A DNA stretch of 53,188 bases from the NCBI GenBank assembly GCA_964424095.1, contig CAYRHE010000001.1:1-53188 (forward strand). The letters run 5' to 3'. Positions 1 to 34,567 of the stretch are shown here, piece after piece. Numbering within the stretch: the stretch's first letter is position 1; each line of letters starts with the position of its first letter. This DNA is from an uncultured Candidatus Peribacteria bacterium (GTDB lineage Bacteria > Patescibacteriota > Gracilibacteria > Absconditabacterales > Absconditicoccaceae). A program made the translations under genes and the position numbers. The notes beneath the pieces were generated by a model. That model saw only the letters and a list, made by a program, of their open reading frames with translations. It made no database searches and had not been told where the DNA came from.

Positions 1-51
1 TTCTGCCTTCCAAGCAGACTGTTGCGGGTTCGAGTCCCGTCATCCGCTCCA
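1..51 (+). tRNA. tRNA-Gly (anticodon UCC), 3' portion only; the window starts inside the gene
   Basis: Anticodon stem tctgc/gcaga (2-6/14-18) with loop cTTCCaa. T-arm gcggg-ttcgagt-cccgt. Acceptor 3' strand, U discriminator and encoded CCA ending at 51. Confidence 0.8.
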
Positions 52-11608: not shown

Positions 11609-11982
11609 GGGGATGTCTCTGGATTTGATAAAGGGACTTCATAATTGATGACAGCCACTACTCGATGAGCGTACCGAGTATACTAATCGTTCAACCAAAA
11701 AATGCTAACGCATCTAAATCTCTTTTAAAGAGAGCTGCTCTTGTTAGTCCTGCTTACGCAGTCTAATTTAGACAGTAACCATCCTGACTGCTGACTCCTT
11801 CTATCTTTCAGGTCGCCCTAAGAAGGAAAACATTATGTTGCTAGGACAAAATGCTCGCCTGTTTATCGGCCAAAGCTTGCCTGTACTAGTAACTTGAAAA
11901 ACCATAGGCCTATAGATAATCTATAGTGGTAGAAATTGTTGATTATGCCTTTTAGACACGGGTTCGATTCCCGTCATCTCCA
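11609..11982 (+). ncRNA. ssrA: tmRNA (SsrA)
   Basis: 5' ggggatg pairs with 3' catctcc, including the G3:U pair. T-arm gggttcgattccc. Discriminator A; CCA is not encoded. Candidate tag ORF 11704-11766: ANASKSLLKRAALVSPAYAV then TAA. Confidence 0.9.
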
Positions 11983-12006
11983 AAAATCTAATTCTGACCT
12001 AATAAG

Positions 12007-12267: not shown

Positions 12268-13578
12268 TTATATATTTTTTTTGATTTCTAACAATTTTTC
12301 TTTTCCCATTAGTTTATACACAATTGGTACTAATTCTCTGTACAAAACACAATGAGGATCTTTTCCATTCACCCTTTCTAAAGGACAACCACTTGTACAA
12401 ATATATTTTAAATTACAATTTTTGCAGTCATCATTAACTTCTCCGTAATAACTTTTTTTCTGAATTATCGATAGCAAATCTTCTTTGTCAAATATAGATC
12501 CTATAGAATCCGTTACCCCAAATTGTGTATGACAGAAATATATATTTCCATCTGTATACAAAGCACCTCCTGAAAAACCATTACTACATGTTTGAAAGAA
12601 TGGGTCTGAGAACTTTAAATCACAAAGTTTATGATTTTTAGAAAACTCATAACCATTATCAATAGCAGAAGATAATTCTTTATAACACTCTTTTAATACC
12701 GAAGAGACTTTTTTTATATCAAGACTTTCGTTTTGAACAAAAGAGAATCTAAAGGGTATTTTTTTTCTAATCAAATATTTTGTAAAATCAAGCAAACCAT
12801 CAATATTTTTATTAGACACAACAGTCATAATACCTGGTCTAACACCTGATTGTATTAATTTATTTATATTTGATTCAACAATTTTAAAACTACCATCACC
12901 ATTCTTAAAATAACGAGTGCTATCTTGAAAAGAATCTAATCCATCTAAAGACACGCCTATTCCAATCTTTTCTTCTTTAATAAATGAAATAATTTCGTCT
13001 GATAAAATAGTAAGATTAGTAAGAAAAGTTATCCTTAGTTTACAATTTAATTGGATTAATCGTTGTTTTAAATTTTTTATAGCTTCTTTCCATTGTTTAA
13101 ATTTTAAGAAAGGCTCACCTCCTGCAAGCCGCAACGAAACATAATTAAGATTTTTTTCTTTTACTGTTTGAATAATTTTCTCAGATAAAATATTAATTTT
13201 TTCATCTTCGAGATAATTATTAAATCCTAATGTATGAATATTGCAATACGAACACCTTAGAGTACAATTATTTGTCGTATGAATCCATAAATTTAAACTT
13301 TTAGGTGTAGTATCCCAATAAATATCATCAAAAATATTTGAATAATTAACTATGTTTTTTTCTGATAAAATATCACAGGCCAACTTAATATTATCTTCTG
13401 TCGTTACAAAGAAATCTGCTATTTCTTTAATAGTTTTTTTACCATCTATAAGCATTAAAACATTATACTGGATTTTGTTAATGACCTTTAATCCATCTTT
13501 TATATATGGATTAACTACCGAATAGAACATATCATCTATCGGAATAATTAATAATTGACCATTTCTATACGGTATCAT
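12268..13578 (-). CDS. Radical SAM/SPASM-domain peptide maturase with N-terminal RRE-like domain
   Basis: Uninterrupted 436-aa ORF, AGGAG Shine-Dalgarno. CTLRCSYC (CxxxCxxC), GGEP, C-terminal CKNCNLKYICTSGCP plus further Cys. The N-terminal ~90 aa look like a PqqD/winged-helix domain. Confidence 0.88.
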   Translation of the reverse strand: MIPYRNGQLLIIPIDDMFYSVVNPYIKDGLKVINKIQYNVLMLIDGKKTIKEIADFFVTTEDNIKLACDILSEKNIVNYSNIFDDIYWDTTPKSLNLWIHTTNNCTLRCSYCNIHTLGFNNYLEDEKINILSEKIIQTVKEKNLNYVSLRLAGGEPFLKFKQWKEAIKNLKQRLIQLNCKLRITFLTNLTILSDEIISFIKEEKIGIGVSLDGLDSFQDSTRYFKNGDGSFKIVESNINKLIQSGVRPGIMTVVSNKNIDGLLDFTKYLIRKKIPFRFSFVQNESLDIKKVSSVLKECYKELSSAIDNGYEFSKNHKLCDLKFSDPFFQTCSNGFSGGALYTDGNIYFCHTQFGVTDSIGSIFDKEDLLSIIQKKSYYGEVNDDCKNCNLKYICTSGCPLERVNGKDPHCVLYRELVPIVYKLMGKEKLLEIKKNI

Positions 13579-13622
13579 AATTTTCTCCTTTCTTTTTTGT
13601 TTATTTATCTCTTTATATATAT

Positions 13623-14330
13623 TTATAGTGTTTTATCAACATTTTTATAAACATTTATTCTGTCACATCAATACTCTATCACCTTTTCAAAATTCTTATT
13701 TTGTTTCCAATACTCTCGTAAATCTGATCTCAATTCCTTGTGTAACAGATATCATTTATCTGGTTTAGCTAAAAATTGCTGACATGAATCATTTAAGATA
13801 ACTGTCAGTGATTCCTTGAGAAATTCAAATTGTTCGTTTGTTAAATCTTTCATAGCATTACTATCTTTATAATAATGTATCACTTGAAAATGCTGTAGTT
13901 CGTGAAGAAAATTTCAAAGAAAATTATCAATATTCCAAAAGATACAAGTCCATATATATCATTTTTCATAATCATAAGGACCACGGGGAAAAGTTGTAAG
14001 ATAAATAGTAAAATCTTTTCTATAAATTGGTCTTTTAGTTAATCTTTCCATACAAAGACAAGCTTGTTCAAATTTTTCTTGAAATATCTTTTGAGATTTA
14101 ATTAAAACCGTATCAATAAGTATTTTATTATCTTTATATAATTTATTTAGATATGGTATCATAAACTCTTTTGCTTCTTCATAACTTATTCATACTAATT
14201 TATTTGCTATTTCTTGATATTCTGGAGACAATGATTCTTTCCAATTTTTTCCATGAGAAATTTTATTACATCAATCTACTCGATTTTTGAGATCTTTTTC
14301 GATATCTAGTTGAAACTGAAAAGAAAACAT
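13623..14330 (-). CDS. HExxH motif protein (putative Zn metallopeptidase; candidate leader peptidase)
   Basis: ATG 14330, TAA 13623-13625, 235 aa. Six of its eight Gly are TGA. Contains FLHELQHFQV. Same frame as track ORF 13959-14162. Confidence 0.6.
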
Positions 14331-14827: not shown

Positions 14828-15736
14828 CTATGGAAACTGTAGGCCCCATCATAATTCAGATATTGATATCGATATATCAGCCCATGTTTTATCTACATCA
14901 GATTTTGGCGCCGAAGAATAGTTTTTATTAATATTAAATCAAAAAAAAGACTCTATAATAGAAATAATTTTTTTTATCTTTACAGGAGATCAATTTCCTA
15001 AATTAAAAATACAAGACTTACCAAAAGTAGAATATTCAGCAGCCAAAACAATTCATTTAACAACATCATCTATATAAGTAAAATCTCTTTCCATATTTCA
15101 ATTATTAAAAACAGTTATTTCTTGTCATGATACACATTTTTTAGTAAAATCAAAATAAGCCATATCAGGTCTTCCTAAAGGTCAATAGACTGTAAAAAGT
15201 CTAAGTCAAACAGATCAAAAATTAAAAGTATCACTATATGACTTTGCAATCAATTCATTAGATTTTTTGGTTACAGCATACAAGGATTTAGGATTATCAG
15301 AACTATCTGATAATCATGATGGACTATTAGTTTTTCTATCTCCATAAACACTTGAACTAGATGCATAAACCATATTTTCAACAGAATATTTTCTTGCCAA
15401 ATCTATAATAGTTCAAAAACCAGTTATATTAGAATCAATATACGCTTTGGGGTTTATTTCTCCGTACCTAACACCAGCCTGAGCTGCCAAATGGAACACT
15501 TTTTGAAAATTGTATTTTTGAAAAACAGACTCTATATCATCATAGTTTTTTAGATCAGCTTTTATAAATACAAAATTCTTATATTTTTCTAATAAATGTC
15601 TCCTTGCTTCTTTCAAAGATATATCATAATAATCATTTTCAATATCCAATCAGACTACATTATATCACTGTCTCAATAGAAAATCAGAAACGTGATATCA
15701 AATAAATCAACTTGATCATGAAACCAAATAATACAT
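14828..15736 (-). CDS. NAD-dependent nucleotide-sugar epimerase/dehydratase (SDR family)
   Basis: ATG 15736, TAG 14828-14830, 302 aa with TGA=Gly. MYYLVSgSSgFIgYHV (GxxGxxG), SSSSVYG, YAVTK (YxxxK). Confidence 0.85.
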
Positions 15737-15783
15737 AGTTATGTTTAGAATAGATAATAAAATTAGTTTTTATAACACGTTCA

Positions 15784-17022
15784 TTAATCGAAAAAAGTAT
15801 ATAACAATGATTTCTTTAATACTTTAGAATAAAGGTCATTACTCATAATATTTTGTATATTTTTTATATTTTCTACTACTAGATATCATTCATTACATGA
15901 AGTTTGGTTTTTAAAATCATATATATTATTTTTCTTTACAACAAAAATAAAACATCTAGTAATGTCCATATTTTCTTTTTTTATAAATAATTGCCTATTC
16001 TCTATCTCTTCTTCTTTTAAGGAAATACCTAGTTCTTCATATACCTCCCTTAACATTCCATCAATAATTAATTCTCACTTTTCAAGTCATCAGCCAAATA
16101 ATGTATATTTTCAACTATTTTTGATATTTTTTTTATGATCTCTCTTTTGTATTATAAAATTTCAATTAGAATCATAAAACAATACCCCTGTGTAGATATT
16201 TTGGTTATCAATTAGATCGTCATATATTTCTATCTCCTTTTCTAAATAATATTTTTTGTCTAATTTTTCTACAAATGGCAAAAAATCTTCTGCAATATTC
16301 TGATTATATTCTCATATAATTTTATTATTACTAATTACTAATCAACCATATTTATGATCCAACACCTTTTGATAAGAATTGCCTATATACATAGTTCATA
16401 AAGAGGGACTTTGGTATATTTTATTATATGTTTTTCTATATTTATCTCTCTCATTTATTAAATTCTTAACATTATCTTCACCTTTATAATCAAACTTAAG
16501 ACCAACCTTATCTATAAAGATATTAGTCATATACTTAAATTGAGAAAATCTTTTTCAGAAAATCAAATCTTTTTTTTCTACTTTATGTAAATCTCATTTT
16601 TCATCATAATATATAACATATTTTAGATTATCAAATATAGATAATCATAATTTTCATGATCATGAGTTATTTATAACAGCTCCACCAACTGTTCATGGAA
16701 TTCATCGTAAATACGACCCATCAAATCATAAACTACTAAGCTTACTTACTAAAGATGACAACAATACTCATGAATCTAATTCAACAGTTCAATCATTGGA
16801 TATATCATAACCATCAACTAAAAGCTTTTTATATACAAAAAGCTTTTTATTTTTATTCTCTAATTTTAGAAAAGTATTTGTTAAACATCATACAACTTTG
16901 AAATCAATTCATCTATTATAACAAAAAGAAATAGCATCAATCAACTTATCTCTTTGATCAAAATAAGCAATCTGATTAATCTCAGTACCTAATATCCAGT
17001 TACCAAATTTTCTAATACTCAT
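15784..17022 (-). CDS. MurB-like UDP-N-acetylenolpyruvoylglucosamine reductase fused to a C-terminal Nudix hydrolase domain
   Basis: ATG 17022 (tAGGAG Shine-Dalgarno), TAA 15784-15786, 412 aa. gIPgTVGGAVINNSgSgK and PSLgTMYIGN are MurB-like. Nudix box ggLEKgE...REVYEELGI near the C-terminus. Confidence 0.65.
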
Positions 17023-18352
17023 AAGACGCTCCTATTAGTTTTAAAACATTTTCTATATCATGATATCATCTTTTTAAAATAGAAAAATTATTTATTATAA
17101 GTTTTTTCTTAGTATAGATTCACAATAATAACAACAATCAAGATTCTCTTATACTAAATAAGTCAAAAGGATCACATGCAAAGTTTTGTTTAGAAACAGT
17201 TCATTTAGAATGACTTAAAATATAGGTATTTCAATCTACAATATTGGAATCTAATCCAAGATCTTTATAATATTCTATATATTTATATCTATCTGGAAAC
17301 CTATTATCCACAAGAGAAATCAACGGATAAAACAATATAATTAGAGATAATATAGGTAAAGAATCACTCATAATATCAGGATATACACTTGCTATTAAAT
17401 TAATACTATCTTTATAACTTATAGACAAATTTGAATAATCAATAATCAGATTTGATTCTGTCCTTGTAATAATATTTCCAAATAGTTTTTCTATAAGAGA
17501 TATTTCCATATAAGGATAATTGTTATTATATTTATTGATAATTATCTTCTGTTTTGCCAACAAAGAAATAAATATATAAAACAACAACTGATCAAAATCA
17601 GATAGAACAAAATAAGACAAAGATTTTATATCATTTGATTTATATTTTATTCCCAAGAATTTCCTTTCTTCACTAGAAAATTGTATATCATAACCAAACA
17701 AAGAACAAACATTCATTAATTCTTTTATATCAGGTCTGTTTCAATAAAAATTACCTACTTCAATACTATCATATTTGTCATAATTCAACAAACAATATAA
17801 TAAAACATTCTCTGAAACTGATGTTGATTCAATTTTCATCTTATATTCTATTGATCTATGATCAATATTTTTATTTCTTTTGATTATAATCTTATTTGAT
17901 CTTTCTATAATATCATGTCACACTTTTTCAAAGAAATCGTAATGTATATCGTTTTTTCTTTCTCACTGAATATTACATCATCATGTGTGCATAGGAATAG
18001 AAACTTCATCAAAAAAACTAAGAAGCAATCATAAAAGCAAAATAGAATATCTTATTTTCTCATATAGTTGTTCGTTTATTATATTAGTTAATTTTGTATT
18101 TTTACCATCAATAGTAAGTTCATTTTTATCTTCATACATGGATATAGAGAATCATAGTCATATCAACATCTCTATTGAAGACTTAACATCTGATGATGAT
18201 GGAATGTTTTTTAGTGTGATATCTTTTTTATCTTTATAGCATATACCTGCACATAGAAATAAAAGTGGTAATATTGTGTTTTTTGCTCATAACAAAGGTA
18301 ATGTAATCTCTTGTCATTGATATTTATCAATTTTTGAAAAATCTATTATCAT
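17012..18352 (-). CDS. MurA-like UDP-N-acetylglucosamine 1-carboxyvinyltransferase (EPSP-synthase fold)
   Basis: ATG 18352, TAG 17012-17014, 446 aa; codons checked by coordinate. LLGAKNTILPLL, TggCNIQgERKNDIH (catalytic Cys loop). Overlaps its downstream neighbour by 11 nt. Confidence 0.72.
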
Positions 18353-19406
18353 GTTTGATCAAATAAATAAAAACAGCTATTGTAAATAATTTCCATCTTT
18401 TTGATTTTATATTTTCCTCCTTTAATATTTCTTCAACAAAATCTATATTTATATTGAAACAATCTATTGTGCTATAATTATCATATATATACTGATAATA
18501 TTGATCGATAACTTCTTCCAATACCGGATATTTAAATCATTGTTTTTTTTCTTCAATATTTATGCTAAAGTTATTTTGTAAATAATTTCTAAGATAACTT
18601 TTATCTTGGGAATTAATATTAAATCTGTTTATTAGAGAAATATATTTATAAAATCATGAATAAAAGGGATAATAAATTATATCTCTACCATATAAACAGT
18701 TATCCATCATTTTATATGTAATATTATTAAACCAAACATCTATATCTCTAAATAATTCTGATGAAACATCTTTATACAAGAACTCTTGATTATTTGGCAG
18801 ACCGAGCAACATTGATATTTCTTCAGAAGAAAATATAATAGGCTTTTCAAATGAATCCATATTTTCTGATAGACCGAATATCTCATCTCATAGATCTCAA
18901 GTAACCAATAAAGAGTTATCATCTACTGCTTGGGATAAATTATAATAACTCATTAATGTAGGATGAGAGACTGTATTTTTAAATACGATATTCTGAATAT
19001 TTCACATTGATTCTGAACTTGAATATCTCTTATATTTAATATTTAAATTGTCTCATACATACTTTTTTATAAGATCTGTTTCATCAAATCACTTATCGTA
19101 AGATATACTAATCGAACTGAAATCTATATTATTTTTTGAAAGAATATTAGATATTAAAACAGAATCTATTCATCCACTTAATGCCAAAACAATTTTTTTT
19201 CAAGTCTCATTAGATAGTTTTTTAATTTTTTCTGTAATACTATCAAATTCTTTATCTAACATGCCTATTAATTCCTCTTGCTTAAGATTAGTTATTTGTT
19301 TGATCTCTAATCAAATATTTTTATTTGAGAAAAGGTCCGATCATTCTTGTTTATCAAAACCAAATTTTAGAAAGAAGTCTATTTTAGATAAGTTAGCTTT
19401 TCTCAT
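18324..19406 (-). CDS. Asparagine-synthetase-like PP-loop ATP pyrophosphatase (synthetase domain only, no glutaminase domain)
   Basis: ATG 19406, TAA 18324-18326, 360 aa. LALSGgIDS (SGGxDS). Joins track ORFs 18654-18860 and 18327-18521. Confidence 0.65.
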
Positions 19407-20164
19407 TCAATATAAACATACTTAAATAAAGGCAATCACTGTTCTTTCTCTAGCATATATATATTAGTTATTCAACATGACTTTATTTTATTTATAATAT
19501 TATCATTAATTTCTTTATCCAACACAACTCATTTAACCTTTTTAAATATTCATTTAATTTTTATAATATCTAACAAATATAGAATCATATCTAAATCTAT
19601 ACCATGAAAATCAAAATATAATATAGAATTTTTCAGATTAAATTTAAATATATCATAAGTATTAAGAAATATTGATATATGACCACCAAATATTTTTCAA
19701 TGTAATTTATATAATCAGGATATTATTTTTATTTTAATTGAAGTAGTATCTTTTTCAATGAAGTTAGTTAAACTATTTTTTTCATCAATAGTAAGGTCGC
19801 CTATATTTCTCATCGTTACTCAATACCAAACATCGACGAGTGGATAATTGGCAAATATAGATTGGATATGTTGCAAATCACTATATCAAATCAGAATTTT
19901 TCTATTTTTGATTTTTTGTTTTATCATCAATTTTTCTACGTATTGTATGGCGCTTACACCACCAGACGTAAACAATATGATTGACTCTCAGTCATCTTTC
20001 ATAATCTGTTCAAAGACATTTATTCAAGACTCTAATAATGTTTCCTTATAAAGAATTGGATCATATCACATATCTTTTATAGCGGATAATCACTGATCTA
20101 TTTCTGTATCAGATATTTTAGCCTTTATATCGCTTAAGTTTAGCACATGAATCTTTTTTTTCAT
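19379..20164 (-). CDS. LD-carboxypeptidase-like serine peptidase (S66/LdcA-MccF family)
   Basis: ATG 20164, TAG 19379-19381, 261 aa. ILIgYSDLQHI (nucleophile Ser context), FGGH. Overlaps the next gene by 28 nt. Confidence 0.6.
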
Positions 20165-20172
20165 ATTTTTTT

Positions 20173-22107
20173 TTATAAAATAAATTCACTAGCAATAATA
20201 AATCATTTTAGTTTTTTTTCAATTGTATTATTTATAATTCATAAATATCAAATAACTTCATCATTCAATACTATATCAAAGGAAGCATCTTTAGACAACA
20301 AAGGAATATTTGGATTATTCTTTAATTCAATTTTAACATCTTTACTAGATTTAAATAAACTATATATTTCGGAAAAAACAACATTAAACAATCAAAAATC
20401 TTCTTTAGAAAAAGAATTTATCAAACACAAATGTTTTTTATCTCACTTTTTGGTAGATATATTTTGAACAGAGAACATTTTTCTAGGATATTTGTCTGTA
20501 TTTGATAATAATTTATCTAACATAGATAACGTCATATTATTTATCAAAACATTTTCTCATCAATTACAAACAATATTGTCTCCAAATAGAGAAGAAAAGT
20601 ATTTTGAATTTTCGCTTTGATCTGGTATAAGCCTTTTAAATAAAGGAATATCTATATGATTATATAGTTTATTAAGAAAGAAAGCATTTGTAAAATCTAG
20701 ATATTGAACAGAATCAATCTTATTTGCATTTTTTTGATTATTCACGCTATATTTCAAATCCTCGGATATAATATCAAACAATTCTCCAATAAAATCATAA
20801 GAAGAAACTAAATCAGTTCTATATTTTGGTACAGTAATATTGTATTTATTATTATCATCAGCACTATCAACTATATTTCGCCCCAATCATCAATTAGATA
20901 TTTTATTAACATCAATATTTTTTCATAAGACATCAGTTAATTCTTTCTTTATAAGATAAACAATACTGTTTTCTTGATGAACACTATCTTGTTTATAATC
21001 AGATAAAAATATTAAATTTCTAGGATCATATGATGAAAAAGATATTTCTAATAAATTATCTTTATTATGAATAATCTTTCAACCATAATATTGTTCTAAA
21101 AAATATGGGAAAGATGGAAAAAAATCATCTTTCCAATTTCAAGAAATCTGTAAAGATTTTTCTTTCACTTCACATTTAGATTGACTTTGTATCTTCTCAT
21201 AATTTCTATCGATGATACTATAGAAAATATTTTTTGAAAAAAGATCTATTCTCTTTAAATTTAGAGGACGAATAGAAAGAAATTCCTTATCTTCTACTAT
21301 TTCTATCTGAAGATCTTTCTGCTTCATTTTTATCATATCCTCATAACGCTTATCTACTACTATTGATTTAGATGCATTAAATTCCTTATTGTTTATTTCT
21401 TTTTTATTATTTACGTTATCAAGTTTCATTCAAAAAATAAACAAACGATCTTTTGTTTTATCGATTCTATCTACAAGTTCTTTGTCAATATATCATCATA
21501 CCATTGAAACATTCTTTCCACTAGATGTTCTGAACACAACTCTGAAAGAAACTGAAACAAAATAAAAAATTTTTTTTTCAATATTAGATAAATAAACTTC
21601 TTCTCACAACGATTCTTCTAAAAAATTTTTCATTAACAAGATATTCTCTTGTATATTCATTCATGATGTTCATCATTCTACCTGAGCATATTCTTTTTTA
21701 TTTTTTCTAAATAGCTTATCTAATATAAAGACTTTAGAATCATTACCTAAAATCAACTGCTTTATAAGCAATCAACTAAACTGAGATACTAATGTTTTCT
21801 TATTTTCATAGCCACCTGTATCTCCATATTTTTTATCTAAATAATGCTTAATAATATTTGTATAAGAATCCTCGCTAGATATAGAAGTATCTTTAATATC
21901 TACATATATCTGTCACTCTTTGTAGAGAGGTGAATATGTCGGTGTTAATCCCCATACCAAATTATGATTTGTATCTTGTAGAGGAGAGATATTAAGCTGA
22001 GTAAACCCATTTAGTTTTAAAAACAAGATCATTTTATCCGATAAAATATGCTCTTTGCTTTTTTCTCATATCTGCTTTATTGGAACTATATAAGAATTTA
22101 ACATCAT
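20173..22107 (-). CDS. Divergent PheRS beta-subunit-like protein lacking the C-terminal FDX-ACB (B8) domain
   Basis: ATG 22107, TAA 20173-20175, 644 aa; frame checked codon by codon from 20887 to 22125. B5-like ITVPKYRTDLVSSYDFIGELFDI. Ends ...gIINNTIEKKLKgFIIASEFIL. Confidence 0.45.
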
Positions 22108-22152
22108 TACAGCTCTTTTATATTATAATAAAACAAGTAGACAACGTGTTTT

Positions 22153-23505
22153 CTATCTTAAATGATAAGATAATTCTTGTTCTAATTTATCTCTAATTTT
22201 AAAATACATTATATTGATTTCCTCATTAGTTAATGTTTTTTCTAATGATCTAAAAGTTATTCTCATACAGACAGACTTTTTATCTGATCAAAACTTTTTA
22301 TCATTTTCAAATATATCTATTACTTTTACTTCTTCAATCAATCATCATGATATATCTCTTGCTATACCTGCTAATTCAAAAGAATCTGCCTCATTTTTTA
22401 ATTCAATCTTATCAGATTCTTTAGATTTTTTTTCATTCTCAACAAATTTATCTTTTGATGTAAGAAAGGAAATATCTTTATATACAGGAGGAAAATTACT
22501 CACTTCTTTATATTGATCTAAATTTCACCATTGAGATGTTATTCTTTCATCCTCACTCCAAAATATTCTGATATCTGGCACTTTTTTTAATGCCATTACT
22601 AACCTATCTATTCAGAAACCGAAGGCCCATCAATTATATTTATTTGCATCTATTCATAATTTTTCCAACACAGTTGGGTGTACAACTCATGCACCTAAAA
22701 CCTCTAACCATTTTCATTCAAATTCCACTTCAACTTCTAAGCTATCTGTTGTATATGGAAAACTATCTTCGTTAAATCTATATTTGATGTCATCGCCAAA
22801 CAATGCTTTTATAGTATGTTCTAATACATCCTTTAATGTATCCTGATTTATTTCTTCTTTATCTTTTGAAACTATTCTTAATCCATCTATCTGATGAAAA
22901 CATTCATGATGTGTCTTATCTAAATCATCGACACGATAAACTTTTCAAAAAGACAATGCTTTTACCTCGCCTGTTTTTTCTAAATATTCTTTTGCTTTAC
23001 CTTCCAATAGATAATAATACCACATCACAGATGTATGTGGTCTCAATAAAACACTTTCCTTTTTCTCTTCTGATTTATTAATAAAATAACTATCACTAGG
23101 TCTTCTTGCTACGTGATCTTCTTGAAAATTAAACAAGTCAAACGTTTCCCATTCTGATACAAATTGTGGAACTTCAACACTATCAAATCAAGCAAAAAAA
23201 TCTGAATTATAAATTTTTTTCATAACTAAATTGATTGGATGCCCTTCTTGTCTAGATAAATCTGGCATCGATAATACTCTCATAATACGATTATAATAGG
23301 CTACTTCCTTTGGCGCTAATGTATCATCTTTTAATTTTTCTTCTAAATATTTAAACCATGCCTCATCATTTCCAGATATTTTTATCTTATTGCGATTTTC
23401 AGATACTAATCAAAAAATTTCTTTTTTCATATTTATATCATCTTTTCTTTTTTCGTTATTGTTTTCATTAAATACATCACTCTTATTTATTGTACCCATT
23501 TCCAT
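22153..23505 (-). CDS. Mitochondrial-type (FARS2-like) single-chain phenylalanyl-tRNA synthetase: class II core plus FDX-ACB domain
   Basis: ATG 23505, TAG 22153-22155, 450 aa. LRPHTS, FgKVYRVDDLDKTHHECFHQIDGL (motif 2), gKWLEVLGAgVVHP...gWAFGFgIDRLVMALKKVPDIRIFWSEDERI (motif 3), then [10 protein letters not shown]...SVCMRITFRSLEKTLTNEEI. Confidence 0.85.
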
Positions 23506-23610
23506 ATATTATAAATATAAAAACAACTATTTTATATATTTTATATATATAAAATCAAGTGTAAAGATATTTCATCACAACATTTCAGAATTACAGCAAT
23601 TGAATTTAGA

Positions 23611-23772
23611 CATTATCTCCTATATACTATCCAAACACAATCAAAATCTATACTTCTTTCAAGACTCCTCTATTTTCCAGCATCATCCCAAACTCTCAAA
23701 AACTATAAACCTCCTCTAGAATCTCGCTATACTTCCACCCTCAGGGTTCAGAACATAATTCAGTAAGTCCAA
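23611..23772. repeat. Cassette-boundary direct repeat, copy 2 of 3
   Basis: See 14401-14570. Same order and orientation of conserved blocks. Confidence 0.7.
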
Positions 23773-23910
23773 TCACTCGCTATAGAGATACAATTTATCA
23801 TGAGTCCCTATTTTCCTGTCCATGATATTGGACCAAGCGTATTTTTCGTATTCACCGACAAAAAACCCATCAGCACCAAGTTCTTTGTTTTGTGTATCAA
23901 TATCAGACAT
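23716..23910 (-). CDS. Small hypothetical ORF whose 3' end lies in the boundary repeat
   Basis: 64 aa, MSDIDTQNKELGADGFFV...EgLDLLNYVLNPEGGSIARF. Only the C-terminal ~20 aa resemble ORF 14510-14824. Confidence 0.3.
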
Positions 23911-23928
23911 AAACTTGTAAATCAACGC

Positions 23929-24786
23929 TTAGTTTTTATGTGATAAAATAAACTGATATATCTCTGGGAAATTGAAATCGTAGTTGTCTTTGAGGACAGG
24001 ATTGAGATCAGTCAATACTTGTTGTTCCAAAAGATTATAGACCTTATCTATTGTATATTTAAAATCTACTTCTTCTAGTTTTTTATGCACAAGTTGTTTG
24101 AATCCTTTATCTTCAAAATCAAATTCGGTATTGTTTTTGATATATCGTATATCAAAAAAATCTCTAATTGCTGGCTCTTTTCTTGTAAGGCTTGCTCTAG
24201 TTTTTTCAGCTACCGATTCTTTTAGATCTATACAGTTTATTGTGTGGTTTTGAAAAATAGTTTCTTCCAACACGCTGTCTTTATATATTGCAATAATAGA
24301 TTTTTGGATACTTGGAAGCATTAAACTTTTTTTGAGAGAAAAATCTATTTTGATGGTTTGTATAGAATTGTCCAATGTTGATTCATATTCAAAAACAAAC
24401 ATTGCCAGTTTATGTTCATCAAATTTTGTTCTTTCAGGCTTGAGTTTTATATCCAATATTTTGAGATCATCAATAAAATTCTTCTCGTATTCTTTCAATA
24501 AAGTCTGTCTAGCTGATCTTCCTAGTTCTTTATTGATAACAAAATCCAAATCTTCGCTTAGTCTAAAATATGGAAAATAGATTTTATTTAGACAAGTTCA
24601 TCATTTAAATATTAAATCTGGATATTTTTCTCAAAATTTAATCAAAATTAATGTCAGTAAAAAATCTTTTTCTAATTTATACTCATCAAATTTTCATGTG
24701 TTTGATTTTTTTAGTATAGATAAAAACTCTTCTTTTGACAGATTTTGATATTTGGGCAAAAAATCGTTTATATAATCTATAAACAT
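23929..24786 (-). CDS. AbiEii/AbiGii-family nucleotidyltransferase toxin (DUF1814)
   Basis: ATG 24786, stop 23929-23931, 285 aa. Extends track ORF 23929-24549 upstream through TGA. FKggTCLNKIYFPYFRLSEDLDF. Confidence 0.75.
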
Positions 24787-25361
24787 AATGCTGATATTTT
24801 AGTATATAAATTCTTGCTTACGTATTTTTTGGCTAATGTTTGTAACTGTTTCTTGTTTATTGTTGATGGTAATGTGTCGAATTTTTTATTTTCTTTGATA
24901 AGTTGTATAAAAACTCTTTCTTTTGACATAACTTTGTATAAGTATTTATCGACTTTTTGCTCTATACCACCATAAAAGAAACTCTCTCTTTGTCTGACAA
25001 AAATAAATTTACATGGTCCAATTATTTTCTTTCATGAATATTTGGTGTTGTATATGGTATACCGTTCTGCTACCTGCTCTGAAAACCCATATCTATTATA
25101 AATACTAAGTCATCCAAACATATATGTATCATCTCACATATAAAGAGCACCAACCACAAAAGGATTTACAAAACTTCTTGATTTGTTGTTTATATATCGT
25201 TTATCTCTTTTGATTGGAGTAAGAAGTCATTTGGTACACAAATCTTCTATACTATAGTTGGGGGCAAATTTATCCAAAATTTTTGTCAAAAAATCCTTTT
25301 GTACAAAGGTTTGTCCGCAAATTGTTAGTTTTTCCCTAATAATAGCTATTTTGTTTTCCAT
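24777..25361 (-). CDS. AbiEi-like antitoxin/transcriptional regulator (type IV TA)
   Basis: ATG 25361, TAG 24777-24779, 194 aa. Its stop overlaps the toxin start (ATGTTTATAG). Position and size are typical of an AbiE pair. Confidence 0.55.
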
Positions 25362-25490: not shown

Positions 25491-26558
25491 TTATCAAGAA
25501 ATATTTTGTAAAAGAGCAAAAAGTTTGGTATTGATATAATAATTATCTCTACCAGATTTTATTTTTTTTAATATTCAGATTTTTACTAATTCTTCCAAAT
25601 ATTTAACCGCTGTGATACGGGTACATCACAAATCTTTTCTTAAAAATTCTACTCTGGTATAGGGATGTTTGAATATATTATTTAATAATTCTTGACTATA
25701 TATTTTGGGTAATCTTGATCTAATAGTGTGTTTGTATTCCATCATCAGATTTTTTATGTTTTTGATAAGTATTATTGTGTGTTTAGCTGTTTGTTCTATC
25801 ATTTCCAACATCCAAATAACCCAAGCTTCCCAAGTTCACTGATCACGAACTGTTTGTAAATAATTATAATAATCGTTTTTGTGTTTATTTATGCTTCTAC
25901 TAAGATACAAAATAGGGCTATCCAAAAGTCACTCTTTAACCAAATATAAAACATTTATAACACGACCGACTCTACCATTTGCATCATAAAACGGATGAAT
26001 GCTTTCAAACTGATGGTGAATTATCGACATTTTGATCAAAGGGTCTAATTGACTTGGCGTATTAATAAACCACTCTAAATCTGACATTAAATCAACAATT
26101 TCTTTGTGAGATTGTGGGGGGGTATATATTATTTCGCCTGTTTTGTCATTTTTTAGTTCTGTTCATGGCAATTTTCTGATTCATGCATTATTTTCTTCGA
26201 TCATTTGCTGTAATTGTATAATATCTTTTGTAGTAATTAGATTGCTTTTGACAACACTTTGATATCAATAAAACAAAGCATCTGCATAATTATATACTTC
26301 TTTTGCAGGAATACTTGTAAAGTATTTTTTTTTGGTATTGCTTTGGTATAATTCATCATTGGTAGTTATAATATTTTCTATTTCAGAACTTTCTTTGGCT
26401 TCTTGTAAACTCAATGTAGTAATCAAAATAAACATGCTGGGTATTGTTTCAGCAAGACCTTTTAACTCTCACAAAGATTTGTGAGTTTGAGAAAGTTGTT
26501 TTAAAACTCAAATGGTTTCAAAATCGTATGTGTTTAATAATTGCGCAATTTTTTGCAT
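25491..26558 (-). CDS. Fic/DOC family protein with C-terminal winged-helix domain
   Basis: ATG 26558, TAA 25491-25493, 355 aa. HPFYDANGRVGR (HxFx[DE]GNGRxxR). Same frame as track ORF 25626-25811. Confidence 0.85.
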
Positions 26559-26774: not shown

Positions 26775-28166
26775 TTAGAAATCACAAGTTTTTGGAGCTC
26801 TTGGAAAAGGAATAACATCACGAATATTTTCCATACCTGTTATATACATCATCAATCTTTCGAATCATACTCCAAATCAAGCATGAGGAACTGTTCCATA
26901 TTTTCTGAGATCAAGATATCGTCAATAATCTTCTATATTTAGTCACATATCTTTGATTTTTTGTTCCAAAACATCAAGTCTCTCCTCTCTTTGACTTCAT
27001 CAAATAATCTCTCAAACTCCTGGTACTAAAAGATCTGTAGCAGCGACTGTTTTTTTGTCTTCATTGAGTCTCATATAAAACGCTTTGATATCTTTTGGAT
27101 AGTCAGTAACAAAAACTGGTCAATTGTAGATTCTTTCTGAAATATATCTTTCGTGTTCTGTCTGTAAATCAATACCTCGCTCTACAGGATATTCAAATTT
27201 TTGTCCAGATTTTTTGAGAATTTCTACAGCTTGTGTATAGGTAACTCTAGCAAAATCTGAATTTACTAATTTTTGTAATCTGGTTTTCACTTCTGGATTG
27301 ATAAATTGAGCAAAAAAGTCCATTTCTGCATCAGCATTATCCAATATATATTTGAAAGCGTATTTTATTAATCATTCTGCAAGATTCATATCATCATTGA
27401 GATCTGCGAAAGCAATTTCTGGTTCTATCATCCAAAATTCTGAAAGGTGCTTTGTTGTATTACTGTTTTCAGCCCTAAATGTAGGTCAAAATGTATAAAT
27501 TTTACCAAAAGCACATGCAAAAGTTTCTCAATTTAATTGTCAACTTACTGTCAGAGACGTTTCTTTTCCAAAAAAATCTTTGGAATAATCAACTTTCCCT
27601 TCAGGGGTTTTGGGAAGGTTTACCATGTCTAACGTAGAAATTCTAAACATTTCTCATGCTCATTCGCAATCACTTCCTGTAATAATTGGCGTGTGTGCTC
27701 GTATAAATCACTCTTTACGAAAATATTCGTGTATTGCAAAAGCCAATAAACTTCTAACTCTAAAAACAGCTGAAAACGTATTTGATCTTGGTCTAAGGTG
27801 TGCAATTTCACGAAGATATTCGAAGCTATGTCATTTTTTTTGTAATGGATAATCAGTTGGACAACCACCAACAAGAGTTATTTTTGTTGCCTTAATTTCA
27901 AATGTTTGTTTAGCTCATTGAGAAGCTACCAAAACTCATTCGACACTAATAGAAGAACCAGTTGTAAATTTACAAATATCATCAAAATTTGATAAATCGT
28001 TTTCAAATACTACTTGAATATTTTTTAGATAAGATCAATCATTGAGTTCTATAAATCCAAACGTTTTGGAATCTCTTACACTTCTTATCCATCAATTAAT
28101 AGCGATATTTTGATTAAGGAATGATTTATAGTCGCTAAAAATACTCATAATAGCAGTTGTCTTCAT
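26775..28166 (-). CDS. asnS: Asparaginyl-tRNA synthetase
   Basis: ATG 28166, TAA 26775-26777, 463 aa. N-terminus ...[23 protein letters not shown]. C-terminus [20 protein letters not shown]. Confidence 0.9.
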
Positions 28167-32773: not shown

Positions 32774-34567
32774 TTATTTTTTTAAATTCACGGTCAATCA
32801 CAAATCACTCAATAAATTTTCATCAATTTCTCATGGAGCATCAATCATAAGATCACGATATCTTTGATTTTTGGGGAAAGCTATAACTTCACGAATATTT
32901 TCCATATTTTGATATAACATAACTGTTCTATCCAATCCAAACGCACATCAACCATGTGGCGGTACTCCATATTCAAATGATTTGAGCATATGTCAAAATC
33001 TTTCTTGTATTTGTTTTTCTGAAAGTCATAAAATTGCAAATATTGCATGTTGCAACTCTCTATCATGAATTCTAATACTTCCTCATCAAGCTTCACTACC
33101 ATTGAAAATAATATCAAAACAATCAGCTTTGATAGATAAAAGTTTTTGTTTATCTTCCTGTGTCATTGATCAACCTTCACTCATCTTTTTCCCTAATGCT
33201 TTTACAAATGGAATATCTTCATCTTTTGGTTTTGTAAATGGATGATGAACAGCACCAAGAGATCAATCACTTCCTGTCTCAAACAAAGGAAAATCTACTA
33301 TATGAGCAAAACTTACTTCATTTTCTTTATTTTTTAGTACATCAAAATCACCAATAAGTTTGGTTCTAAGCATACCAAGATATTTTGTTACATCCTCCCA
33401 TTCTCCTACTTGAAACAACAAAGTCCATTCACCCTCAAGTTTGTTTGGTAATTTTTCCAAAGCTTCTGGAGTAATGAATTTGGATATAGATCATTTGAGT
33501 CATTCAGAAGTCATTGACAACCACGCCAATCCCTTGGATCCATATTGTTTGAGATATGTTTCATACTTATCTGCTTCTGATCTACTAAGCGATTTTGGTA
33601 ACAAAATTGCCTTGATACAAGACGCTTGTTGAAACAATCCAAAATCTATAGATTTTGCTCGATCAGTAAGTTCTTGGAAAGCAAATTCTGTAGTTCTAAG
33701 TTCTGGTTTATCTGATCAATATTTATCCATCATTTCATGCCAAGTATATATAGGAAATGGTTCTTGAGTAATTTTCTTTTGTGGGAAAATTGTTTTGGTA
33801 ATATATATATAATATCTCTCAATAATATCCAAAACATCTTGTTGCTGGACAAAAGACATTTCAAAATCAACTTGAGTAAATTCTGGTTGACGATCTCATC
33901 TAGGGTCCTCATCACGAAAACATCTTGCTATCTGTACGTATTTGTCCATTCCTGCAACCATCAACATTTGTTTTTGTTGTTGGGGAGATTGGGGAAGTAC
34001 AAAAAATTTACCTGGTTCAAATCTTGCAGGAACTATAAATTCTCTAGATCATTCTGGTGTGTTTTTTACAAACGCTGGTGTTTCTATATGTAAGAAATTT
34101 TCTTGATCAAAAAATTTGATAGTTTCTGTGTAAATTTTGTGTCTAACAATCATGTTTTGTTTCATTGTTTCTCTTCTAAGATCAAGATAACGATATTCTA
34201 GTCTAATATCTTCTCCTACAGGAGCTTCATGATCAATAGGAAAAGGTAGTTCTTTGCAAGTAGAAAGAACTTGTATAGCAGTTGGCGAAATTTCAATTTC
34301 GCCAGTAGTCATTTCTTTGTTTATCATATTTTCTGGTCTAGCTATTACATCACCAGTAATCTTTAGTACATATTCTGATTTTATTTCTGGCAATGGGAAA
34401 GTATGCCTACTTGGATCATATGTTACCTGAGTAATCCCATATCTATCACGAAGATCTATAAATGTCATTCATCCCAAATTTCTAATTTTATTTACCCAAC
34501 CAGAAATAATCACATTTTGTCATATATTTTTTCAAGTTAATTGTCAACAGGTATGCGTACGATACAT
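32774..34567 (-). CDS. aspS: Aspartyl-tRNA synthetase
   Basis: ATG 34567, TAA 32774-32776, 597 aa. MYRTHTCgQLT..., [10 protein letters not shown]-terminal [14 protein letters not shown]. Joins four track ORFs in one frame. Confidence 0.9.

Follow-up and report, generated by a model that had tools for sequence, protein, structure and literature searches.

How does a bacterial lineage charge tRNA-Phe when its phenylalanyl-tRNA synthetase (PheRS) looks like that of a mitochondrion, and does such a chain act alone? This question is raised by a 53,188-nucleotide (nt) stretch of DNA from an uncultured Candidatus Peribacteria bacterium (contig CAYRHE010000001.1 of assembly GCA_964424095.1), which we analysed at its full length and refer to as the window. 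Its minus strand encodes a PheRS chain (22153..23505; hereafter the fused chain) that combines a PheS-type catalytic core with a C-terminal anticodon-binding domain (ACB), a form usually regarded as an organellar invention. Directly downstream on the same strand lies a second gene (20173..22107) coding for a protein derived from PheT (hereafter the beta-like protein). What is observed are the frame and code, the domain content of the two genes, a fold match, conserved active-site motifs, the linkage of the genes and their distribution among taxa. On this basis we propose, with a probability of about 0.5, that the fused chain is the catalytic chain of the housekeeping PheRS and that a stripped beta subunit has been retained as its partner.

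A continuous reading frame under a variant genetic code

The open reading frame (ORF) of the fused chain runs from an ATG at 23505 to a TAG at 22153-22155 and cannot extend further, because an in-frame stop is located one codon 5' of the ATG. The first-pass annotation of this DNA had reported a 450-residue product here; the exact ORF is confirmed on the minus strand, and all four peptide strings which that annotation quoted occur in the translation. Under table 11 the frame contains 12 internal stops, all of them TGA with no internal TAA or TAG, and on account of these codons it is missing from the ORF list made with that table. We compared the TGA sites with 28 homologues lacking in-frame TGA (27 bacterial proteins and human FARS2): at 8 of the 12 positions most of them have Gly, with 28/28 Gly at four of those, and Trp is seen at these positions in none of the 28. 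Hence, TGA is read as Gly in this gene, i.e. genetic code 25, as had been implied by the lower-case g in the quoted peptides. The same code applies to the whole window (1-53188): with TGA as a stop codon, ORFs of at least 100 residues on both strands sum to 24 kb, and with TGA as a sense codon to 81 kb. Copies of the protein in public databases were translated with code 4 and consequently show Trp at the Gly sites, an example being the window's own protein (P0001, 97% identity).

The source is thus a bacterium with code 25 from the Gracilibacteria/Absconditabacteria part of the candidate phyla radiation (CPR), and the earlier placement of the gene in a bacterial host agrees with both the code and the bacterial genes around it. 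A frame that is broken 12 times under table 11 could in principle represent a pseudogene, or else a misassembled or misbinned eukaryotic or mitochondrial-type sequence. This explanation is refuted: every interruption is a TGA falling on a Gly-conserved column, the whole window behaves alike, the neighbours are bacterial, and 20 contigs from independent samples carry this gene in the same surroundings.

A catalytic core and an anticodon-binding domain in one polypeptide

Pfam searches recover two domains in the fused chain, each above its curated cutoff, namely tRNA-synt_2d (PF01409, E 1.8e-59) and FDX-ACB (PF03147, E 3.8e-19, 69 bits vs a cutoff of 31), matches that go far beyond chance. These are the only Pfam domains present and there is no editing module. 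The N-terminal extension that precedes them receives no Pfam family assignment; residues 1-21 are predicted to be disordered and are followed by three helices. The FDX-ACB region is also recognised by the B8 portion of PheT models, marking it as a homologue of bacterial PheT B8, and it displays an insertion of about 20 residues when compared with FARS2 and the Parcubacteria proteins. Across 81 homologues, the Arg of motif 2 (Arg191), the Arg of motif 3 (Arg301), the FPYT stretch at 249-252 and Ala294 are invariant, the last being the equivalent of the E. coli Phe-pocket residue A294.

By sequence, the closest solved structures are entries of human mitochondrial PheRS (mtPheRS), to which both domains align (E 5e-45, 157 bits); bacterial PheS alpha chains rank next in this search of PDB sequences, over the core only (E 9e-35, 123 bits for the best). 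The AlphaFold2 (AF2) model of the fused chain, which was built on the alignment of the 81 homologues and, like all AF2 models used here, from a code-4 translation with Trp in place of the 12 TGA-encoded residues, is confident (predicted local distance difference test [pLDDT] 88.4; predicted TM-score [pTM] 0.82). Its top Foldseek match is the closed human mtPheRS 3cmq (E 1.6e-31, TMt 0.74, root-mean-square deviation 4.2 A over 438 columns). Against the open, tRNA-bound 3tup the TM is about 0.5, and bacterial PheS alpha chains are matched at E ~1e-20 in the core only. The first-pass annotation had described a PheS alpha core and a C-terminal FDX-ACB domain in a single chain that matches FARS2 block for block, and had suggested a domain scan and an AlphaFold comparison with the FARS2 structure. 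Both analyses agree with its description: Pfam finds the two domains, the model superposes on the closed human enzyme, the resemblance to FARS2 spans both domains and outscores that to the best bacterial PheS alpha, and the FARS2 strings that it cited are aligned to the fused chain in the PDB alignment (3cmq/5mgu).

The fold and domain layout of the model, which match those of the monomeric human mtPheRS, favour an alternative in which the fused chain is a complete PheRS of its own, a true mitochondrial-style monomer. The beta-like protein would then be a relic recruited elsewhere, e.g. together with the LdcA-, AsnB-, MurA- and MurB/NUDIX-like proteins encoded beside it. We regard this alternative as a serious though doubtful one, and the properties and linkage of the beta-like gene bear directly on it.

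A PheT-derived protein encoded by the adjacent gene

No terminator-like site was found in the 45-nt spacer that separates the two genes. Taken alone, the beta-like protein of the window gives a weak Pfam match to B5 (E 0.0046), no NCBIfam match at E <= 1 and no PDB match. Word-indexed homologue searches yielded nothing beyond the window's own protein, whether the query was the single sequence or a profile, and nothing was found in metagenomes with an alignment-derived or a degenerate pattern. An exhaustive search of the representatives recovered nine full-length relatives with 23-37% identity, and one more was found in locus L005. A profile built from nine members, in which Trp was changed to Gly at unsupported columns, matches residues 402-684 of E. 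coli PheT, i.e. B5 and the B6/B7 catalytic-like module (CLM), with E 9.6e-7, and stops just before B8. Compared with a clean PheT alignment, the profile match is confident from B5 onwards and ends at PheT position 704 of 815, where B8 begins.

Pfam searches with the nine members individually detect B5 in seven, tRNA-synt_2d in six (best 9.6e-10) and the PheT CLM in four; the B3_4, tRNA_bind and FDX-ACB domains are detected in none of the nine. In two members the N-terminal PheS-type match (residues 13-234 and 109-247) exceeds the gathering cutoff, with B5 near residues 390-455 and the CLM at the C-terminus. Profile-profile comparison with the fused chain aligns the motifs of this N-terminal region with motifs 2 and 3 of PheS: Arg134, Gln142 and Glu144 of motif 2 are invariant, and the Arg of motif 3 is replaced, by Lys in most members and by Asn in the window protein. 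As for editing, the one trace is a tentative profile match of 'YYGG' to 'VMGG' (B3/B4).

The pair thus resembles canonical bacterial PheRS (TIGR00468 + TIGR00472; 1pys, 3pco) in the catalytic core and motifs of its alpha chain, in a gene order that puts a PheT-related gene after the catalytic one, and in the B5 and CLM kept in the beta-like protein. It differs from it in that B8 is on the alpha chain, while B1/B2 (tRNA_bind), B3/B4 (editing) and B8 are not detected in the beta-like protein. Moreover, unlike the canonical beta subunit (about 800 residues, B1-B8), the latter has 644 residues with a degenerate PheS-like domain at its N-terminus, and neither chain reaches the curated cutoffs of the canonical models. 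The Foldseek top matches of its low-confidence AF2 model (pLDDT 52.5) are all PheRS beta chains (E ~5e-11), led by those of the archaeal/eukaryotic cytosolic enzyme (7dpi_B, 3l4g_B); the poor quality of this model is probably due in part to the Trp residues at TGA sites. The cytosolic beta subunit likewise has no B8, a trait common to the beta-like protein; it keeps a functional B3/B4 editing domain, and its alpha subunit has no FDX-ACB. We found no description of the beta-like protein in open-access papers and bioRxiv, and this stripped beta partner appears to be undescribed so far.

Conservation of the gene pair

Linkage was assessed with nine distinct beta-like genes (those of the window and of loci L019, L021 and L090-L095). 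In 8/9 genomes the beta-like gene lies 0-2 genes downstream of the gene for the fused chain, in the pheS-pheT order: it follows directly in the window, L019, L091 and L092, and after one or two genes in L021, L090, L093 and L095. The intervening genes always include an ORF of 503-512 residues that has no Pfam match and is absent from the window. Accordingly, the single-chain PheRS of the first-pass annotation is not supported as stated, given a PheT-derived gene 45 nt downstream that is linked to the fused gene in most of these genomes. The most economical reading, to which we give roughly even odds, is that the two genes are remodelled descendants of pheS and pheT. A monomeric enzyme accompanied by an unrelated relic would leave it surprising that order and proximity have been kept in 8/9 genomes across deep divergence, that the beta-like protein retains exactly those parts of PheT which contact alpha in the canonical enzyme (B5 and CLM), and that its motif-2-type residues are invariant and under selection.

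Several observations weigh against a retained partner, and a number of them speak for the monomer. In L094 the beta-like gene occurs with its downstream cell-wall-type neighbours but no fused gene within 6 kb, and all nine beta-like genes are followed by LdcA-like, (AsnB-like), MurA-like and MurB/NUDIX-like genes; on the strength of L094, the beta-like gene is at least as tightly tied to the cell-wall-type cluster as to the fused gene. When viewed from the fused gene, a beta-like gene is found within 10 kb in only 2/13 Gracilibacteria-type species loci, some of which have little downstream sequence, and it is not seen at all in the 10 kb around the fused gene in Parcubacteria loci. Evidently, then, the fused chain also occurs where no beta-like gene adjoins it. 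Similarly, the 26 non-Gracilibacteria CPR loci with the fusion contain no PheT-like gene within 10 kb, except for a B2/tRNA_bind-like ORF in two Parcubacteria, and several close relatives of the fused chain, among them that of ACD_80C (75% identical), have other genes downstream. The beta-like protein also evolves very fast (24-38% identity among members, compared with 53-77% for the fused chain among its database matches), its AF2 model is poor, and the fused chain itself falls below the cutoffs of the SrmL, pheS_mito and pheS models of NCBIfam. Finally, the portion of the genome covered is 53 kb, and a canonical pheS/pheT pair may lie outside it; in the window no further PheS- or PheT-like ORF was found.

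Canonical PheT is found within 10 kb of none of the 39 CPR fused genes; among canonical loci, full-length PheT stands beside PheS in 19/41. In both genomes that have it (L025 and L031), the B2/tRNA_bind-like ORF (141-152 residues) precedes the fused gene at a distance of 22 nt, and it could be a trans-acting tRNA-binding helper. ORFs of 640-760 residues beside fused genes of Parcubacteria had the size expected of a PheT lacking B8; on reading their sequences they proved to be GyrB. The fused gene adjoins gyrB, either downstream or divergently upstream, in many non-Gracilibacteria CPR (L023, L026, L027, L029, L032, L034, L036, L037, L041 and L047), a conserved gene neighbourhood that has nothing to do with pheT. 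In the window, the beta-like gene belongs to a low-GC block on the minus strand (GC 0.234-0.239 at 16-22 kb vs 0.28-0.32 elsewhere), which further holds genes for LdcA-like, Asn-synthase-like, MurA/EPSP-fold, MurB-like FAD-binding plus NUDIX, and epimerase proteins.

Relationship to curated families

The top NCBIfam match of the fused chain is SrmL ('PheS-related mystery ligase', NF051887), a related fused bacterial family that is already curated by NCBI and for which no paper was found in the open-access literature or bioRxiv. Like the fused chain, SrmL is bacterial and PheS-like, and its 349-position model covers both the core and the C-terminal domain (residues 85-443). Unlike SrmL proper, the fused chain scores 237.1 bits and five of its homologues 219-268 bits, all under the cutoff of 300. 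Likewise, it attains 206.9 bits against TIGR00469 pheS_mito (cutoff 258.35) and 168 bits against TIGR00468 pheS (cutoff 237.45). Of five homologues scored against pheS_mito, the one from Harrisonbacteria passes (265.0 bits), that from Nealsonbacteria reaches 255.3 and the others 192-234.

The end-to-end alignment with SrmL raises the alternative that the fused chain is a non-translational paralogue, with the real PheRS encoded by a canonical pheST elsewhere in a genome of which the window is only a part; consistent with this, two relatives have genes for a small peptide, an HExxH protein and radical SAM/SPASM proteins after the fused gene. Nevertheless, we consider such a function unlikely in view of the intact active site, the sub-threshold SrmL scores and the pheST-like context. 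Residues of the PheRS active site and of the Phe pocket do not vary among the homologues, the family is nearer to FARS2 than to anything else solved, one member passes the cutoff of a PheRS equivalog model, and the adjacent PheT-derived gene fits descent from pheST. The radical SAM genes, for their part, are not a conserved partner.

In the two relatives (ACD_80C and ACD_2C; loci L001 and L003) the set consists of a 38-40-residue peptide, an HExxH protein and radical SAM/SPASM proteins encoded directly after the fused gene; in the window, a radical SAM/SPASM maturase is encoded beside an HExxH protein 8 kb from the fused gene. A conserved partnership of PheRS with a pathway for ribosomally synthesized and post-translationally modified peptides was considered and rejected, the radical SAM proteins being 23% identical and the HExxH proteins matching with E 0.014. 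From these sequence comparisons, the sets probably do not form one conserved system.

Phyletic spread and the link to mitochondrial PheRS

About 3000 database proteins match the fused chain at E <= 1e-10, and nearly all of the best 120 have both Pfam domains. The named matches among these 120 are from Gracilibacteria or from 'gcode 4' ACD bacteria, deposited in 2012, and UniRef labels some matches 'Phenylalanyl-tRNA synthetase'. A survey of GTDB with one genome per species yielded at least 542 stretches coding for relatives, and we classified the best 80 of them. Thirteen of these bear a Gracilibacteria, Absconditabacteria or Peribacteria label and encode the full fusion (57-75% identity), with in-frame TGA in 12 and none in one high-GC member. 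A further 26 are from other CPR, including Harrison-, Nealson-, Moran-, Taylor- and Kaiserbacteria and Paceibacteria, and encode a full-length fusion inclusive of the ACB in the standard code (39-46% identity). Canonical PheS, mostly of Verrucomicrobiota, makes up the other 41. The fused architecture is therefore a common feature of the CPR rather than an oddity of one bacterium, and the view taken in the first-pass annotation, that it is the hallmark of the organellar enzyme, is not supported as stated, all the more so as SrmL is a curated bacterial family. In architecture, the fused chain belongs to the FARS2 type as a bacterial representative, and its family has been public since 2012 and is partly auto-named PheRS; nonetheless, no account of a mitochondrial-type PheRS in bacteria was found in open-access papers and bioRxiv. 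Textbooks and reviews distinguish three PheRS forms, the bacterial (alpha-beta)2, the archaeal/eukaryotic (alpha-beta)2 and the mitochondrial monomer; PMC3275996 is one of these reviews.

Like mitochondrial PheRS (human FARS2, yeast MSF1; TIGR00469; 3cmq, 3tup), the fused chain consists of a PheS core followed by FDX-ACB in one polypeptide with no editing domain; both of its domains align to FARS2 and its model superposes on the closed state. It differs from the mitochondrial enzyme in residing in a free-standing bacterial genome with code 25, in having an extra N-terminal region of about 80 residues together with the insertion in the ACB, and in being co-encoded with a PheT-derived protein. 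To our knowledge, no PheT-derived protein has been reported for mitochondria.

The ACB of FARS2 is nearer to that of the CPR fused proteins than to PheT B8: it is 42% identical to the Parcubacteria proteins, 32% to the Gracilibacteria ones and 27% to B8 in a set dominated by Verrucomicrobiota, and the cores show about 37-40% identity to all three groups. For the Harrisonbacteria homologue, the match to human FARS2 reaches 208 bits and that to bacterial PheS alpha 148 bits, whereas PheT B8 is matched by its ACB with 32-37 bits. In a neighbour-joining tree of the core (65 taxa, 193 columns, 200 bootstraps), for which the canonical PheS set comes mostly from one phylum, canonical PheS is separated from FARS2 and the CPR fused proteins in 191/200 bootstraps, and where FARS2 sits with respect to the CPR clade is recovered in only 110/200. 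This tree, a rough version of the phylogeny that had been proposed earlier, is suggestive only. Taken together with the ACB identities, and with the narrow taxon sampling in mind, the CPR fusion plausibly shares ancestry with the mitochondrial enzyme. A bolder scenario would make the Gracilibacteria pair a third PheRS design, in which alpha has acquired B8 and beta is cut down to a pseudo-catalytic PheS-like domain, B5 and the CLM. As a living intermediate it would link the bacterial (alpha-beta)2 enzyme to the monomer of mitochondria, with CPR and mitochondrial PheRS going back to one fusion event and the mitochondrial enzyme descended from, or exchanged with, this lineage; we think this rather improbable.

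Mechanistic interpretation

If the fused chain is indeed paired with a stripped beta subunit, its evolution would have involved the transfer of the B8 anticodon-binding domain from beta to alpha, as in mitochondria. The beta-like protein would in turn have lost B1/B2, the editing module and B8, kept the parts of the class II pseudo-dimer, and gained or retained a degenerate PheS-like domain. By analogy with known PheRS, the PheS-type class II core of the fused chain is predicted to activate Phe and charge tRNA-Phe, with the C-terminal ferredoxin-fold domain reading the GAA anticodon in cis. The model is in the closed, docked state, from which the anticodon-binding domain may swing out by a hinge, as the pair of human structures 3cmq and 3tup would suggest. 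Post-transfer editing would be absent. The stripped beta-like protein most likely still pairs with the fused chain as its class II pseudo-dimer partner, and the fused chain may be the only PheRS of the cell.

Genomic surroundings

Upstream of the fused gene is a non-coding spacer in which the motif TATAGCGAG occurs twice. No T-box or other leader was found in it, there being no Rfam match at E <= 1 and a folding z-score of -0.29 vs shuffled sequences. Beyond it, further upstream, come a gene for an AbiEii-family toxin, an overlapping ORF with no family match in the position of an AbiEi antitoxin, and then a gene for a Fic/SoFic adenylyltransferase. The genes for asparaginyl- and aspartyl-tRNA synthetase (AsnRS and AspRS) are no more than 11 kb away from that for PheRS, making a cluster of three class II synthetase genes on one strand. 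Elsewhere, the window contains a transfer-messenger RNA (tmRNA) gene whose ARAGORN tag peptide is VQPKNANASKSLLKRAALVSPAYAV. Coordinates are collected in Table 1.

Table 1. Positions of the two PheRS-related genes, their domains and other features; those with a locus handle are in loci of other genomes
Feature	Position	Strand	Details
Fused PheRS chain	22153..23505	-	450 residues; PheS core + FDX-ACB; code 25; 12 TGA = Gly codons; TAG end
Fused chain, N-terminal extension	23260..23505	-	residues 1-82
Fused chain, class II PheRS catalytic core	22531..23259	-	residues 83-325; PF01409 (tRNA-synt_2d); motif residues
Fused chain, C-terminal ferredoxin-fold anticodon-binding domain	22156..22500	-	residues 336-450; PF03147 (FDX-ACB)
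Spacer between the two genes	22108..22152	-	45 nt; AAAGAG motif upstream of the beta-like ATG
Beta-like protein	20173..22107	-	644 residues; fast-evolving, PheT-derived
Beta-like protein, N-terminal degenerate PheS-like class II core	21373..22080	-	residues ~10-245
Beta-like protein, B5 domain	20779..20943	-	residues 389-443
Beta-like protein, CLM (B6/B7 equivalent)	20176..20700	-	residues ~470-644
Conserved ORF between fused and beta-like genes, four genomes	L005 6350-7870; L090 1407-2918; L093 2381-3913; L095 4052-5590		503-512 residues
Stand-alone B2/tRNA_bind-like ORF, two Parcubacteria-type genomes	L025 9440-9898; L031 9473-9898		141-152 residues; E ~3e-35 vs PheT profile
Peptide, HExxH protein and radical SAM/SPASM genes	L001 7441-9536; L003 7412-9522		ACD_80C; ACD_2C
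Low-GC block	14828-22107	-	
Non-coding spacer upstream of fused gene	23506-23928	-	423 nt
AbiEii-family toxin	23929-24786	-	
ORF overlapping the AbiEii gene	24777-25361	-	194 residues
Fic/SoFic adenylyltransferase	25491-26558	-	
AsnRS	26775-28166	-	
AspRS	32774-34567	-	
Radical SAM/SPASM maturase beside HExxH protein	12268-14330	-	
tmRNA	11609-11985	+	Rfam 80.9 bits
tRNA, 3' part	1-48	+	cut by window edge

Implications

The marker models TIGR00468 and TIGR00472 reach their cutoffs on neither the fused chain nor the beta-like protein, so that these genes are likely counted as missing in estimates of genome completeness. The stripped beta subunit offers a natural system for asking what beta contributes to PheRS once anticodon binding and editing are taken away, and whether a class II core can work when it has no pseudo-dimer partner. 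The implied absence of editing of Tyr-tRNA-Phe would bear on translational fidelity in a lineage in which UGA has been recoded. Given that the fusion is CPR-wide and that its ACB is nearer to FARS2 than PheT B8 is, the origin of the mitochondrial enzyme becomes testable by phylogeny. Should the fusion turn out to be shared, mitochondrial PheRS would have been derived from, or exchanged with, a CPR lineage, rather than having been assembled in eukaryotes.

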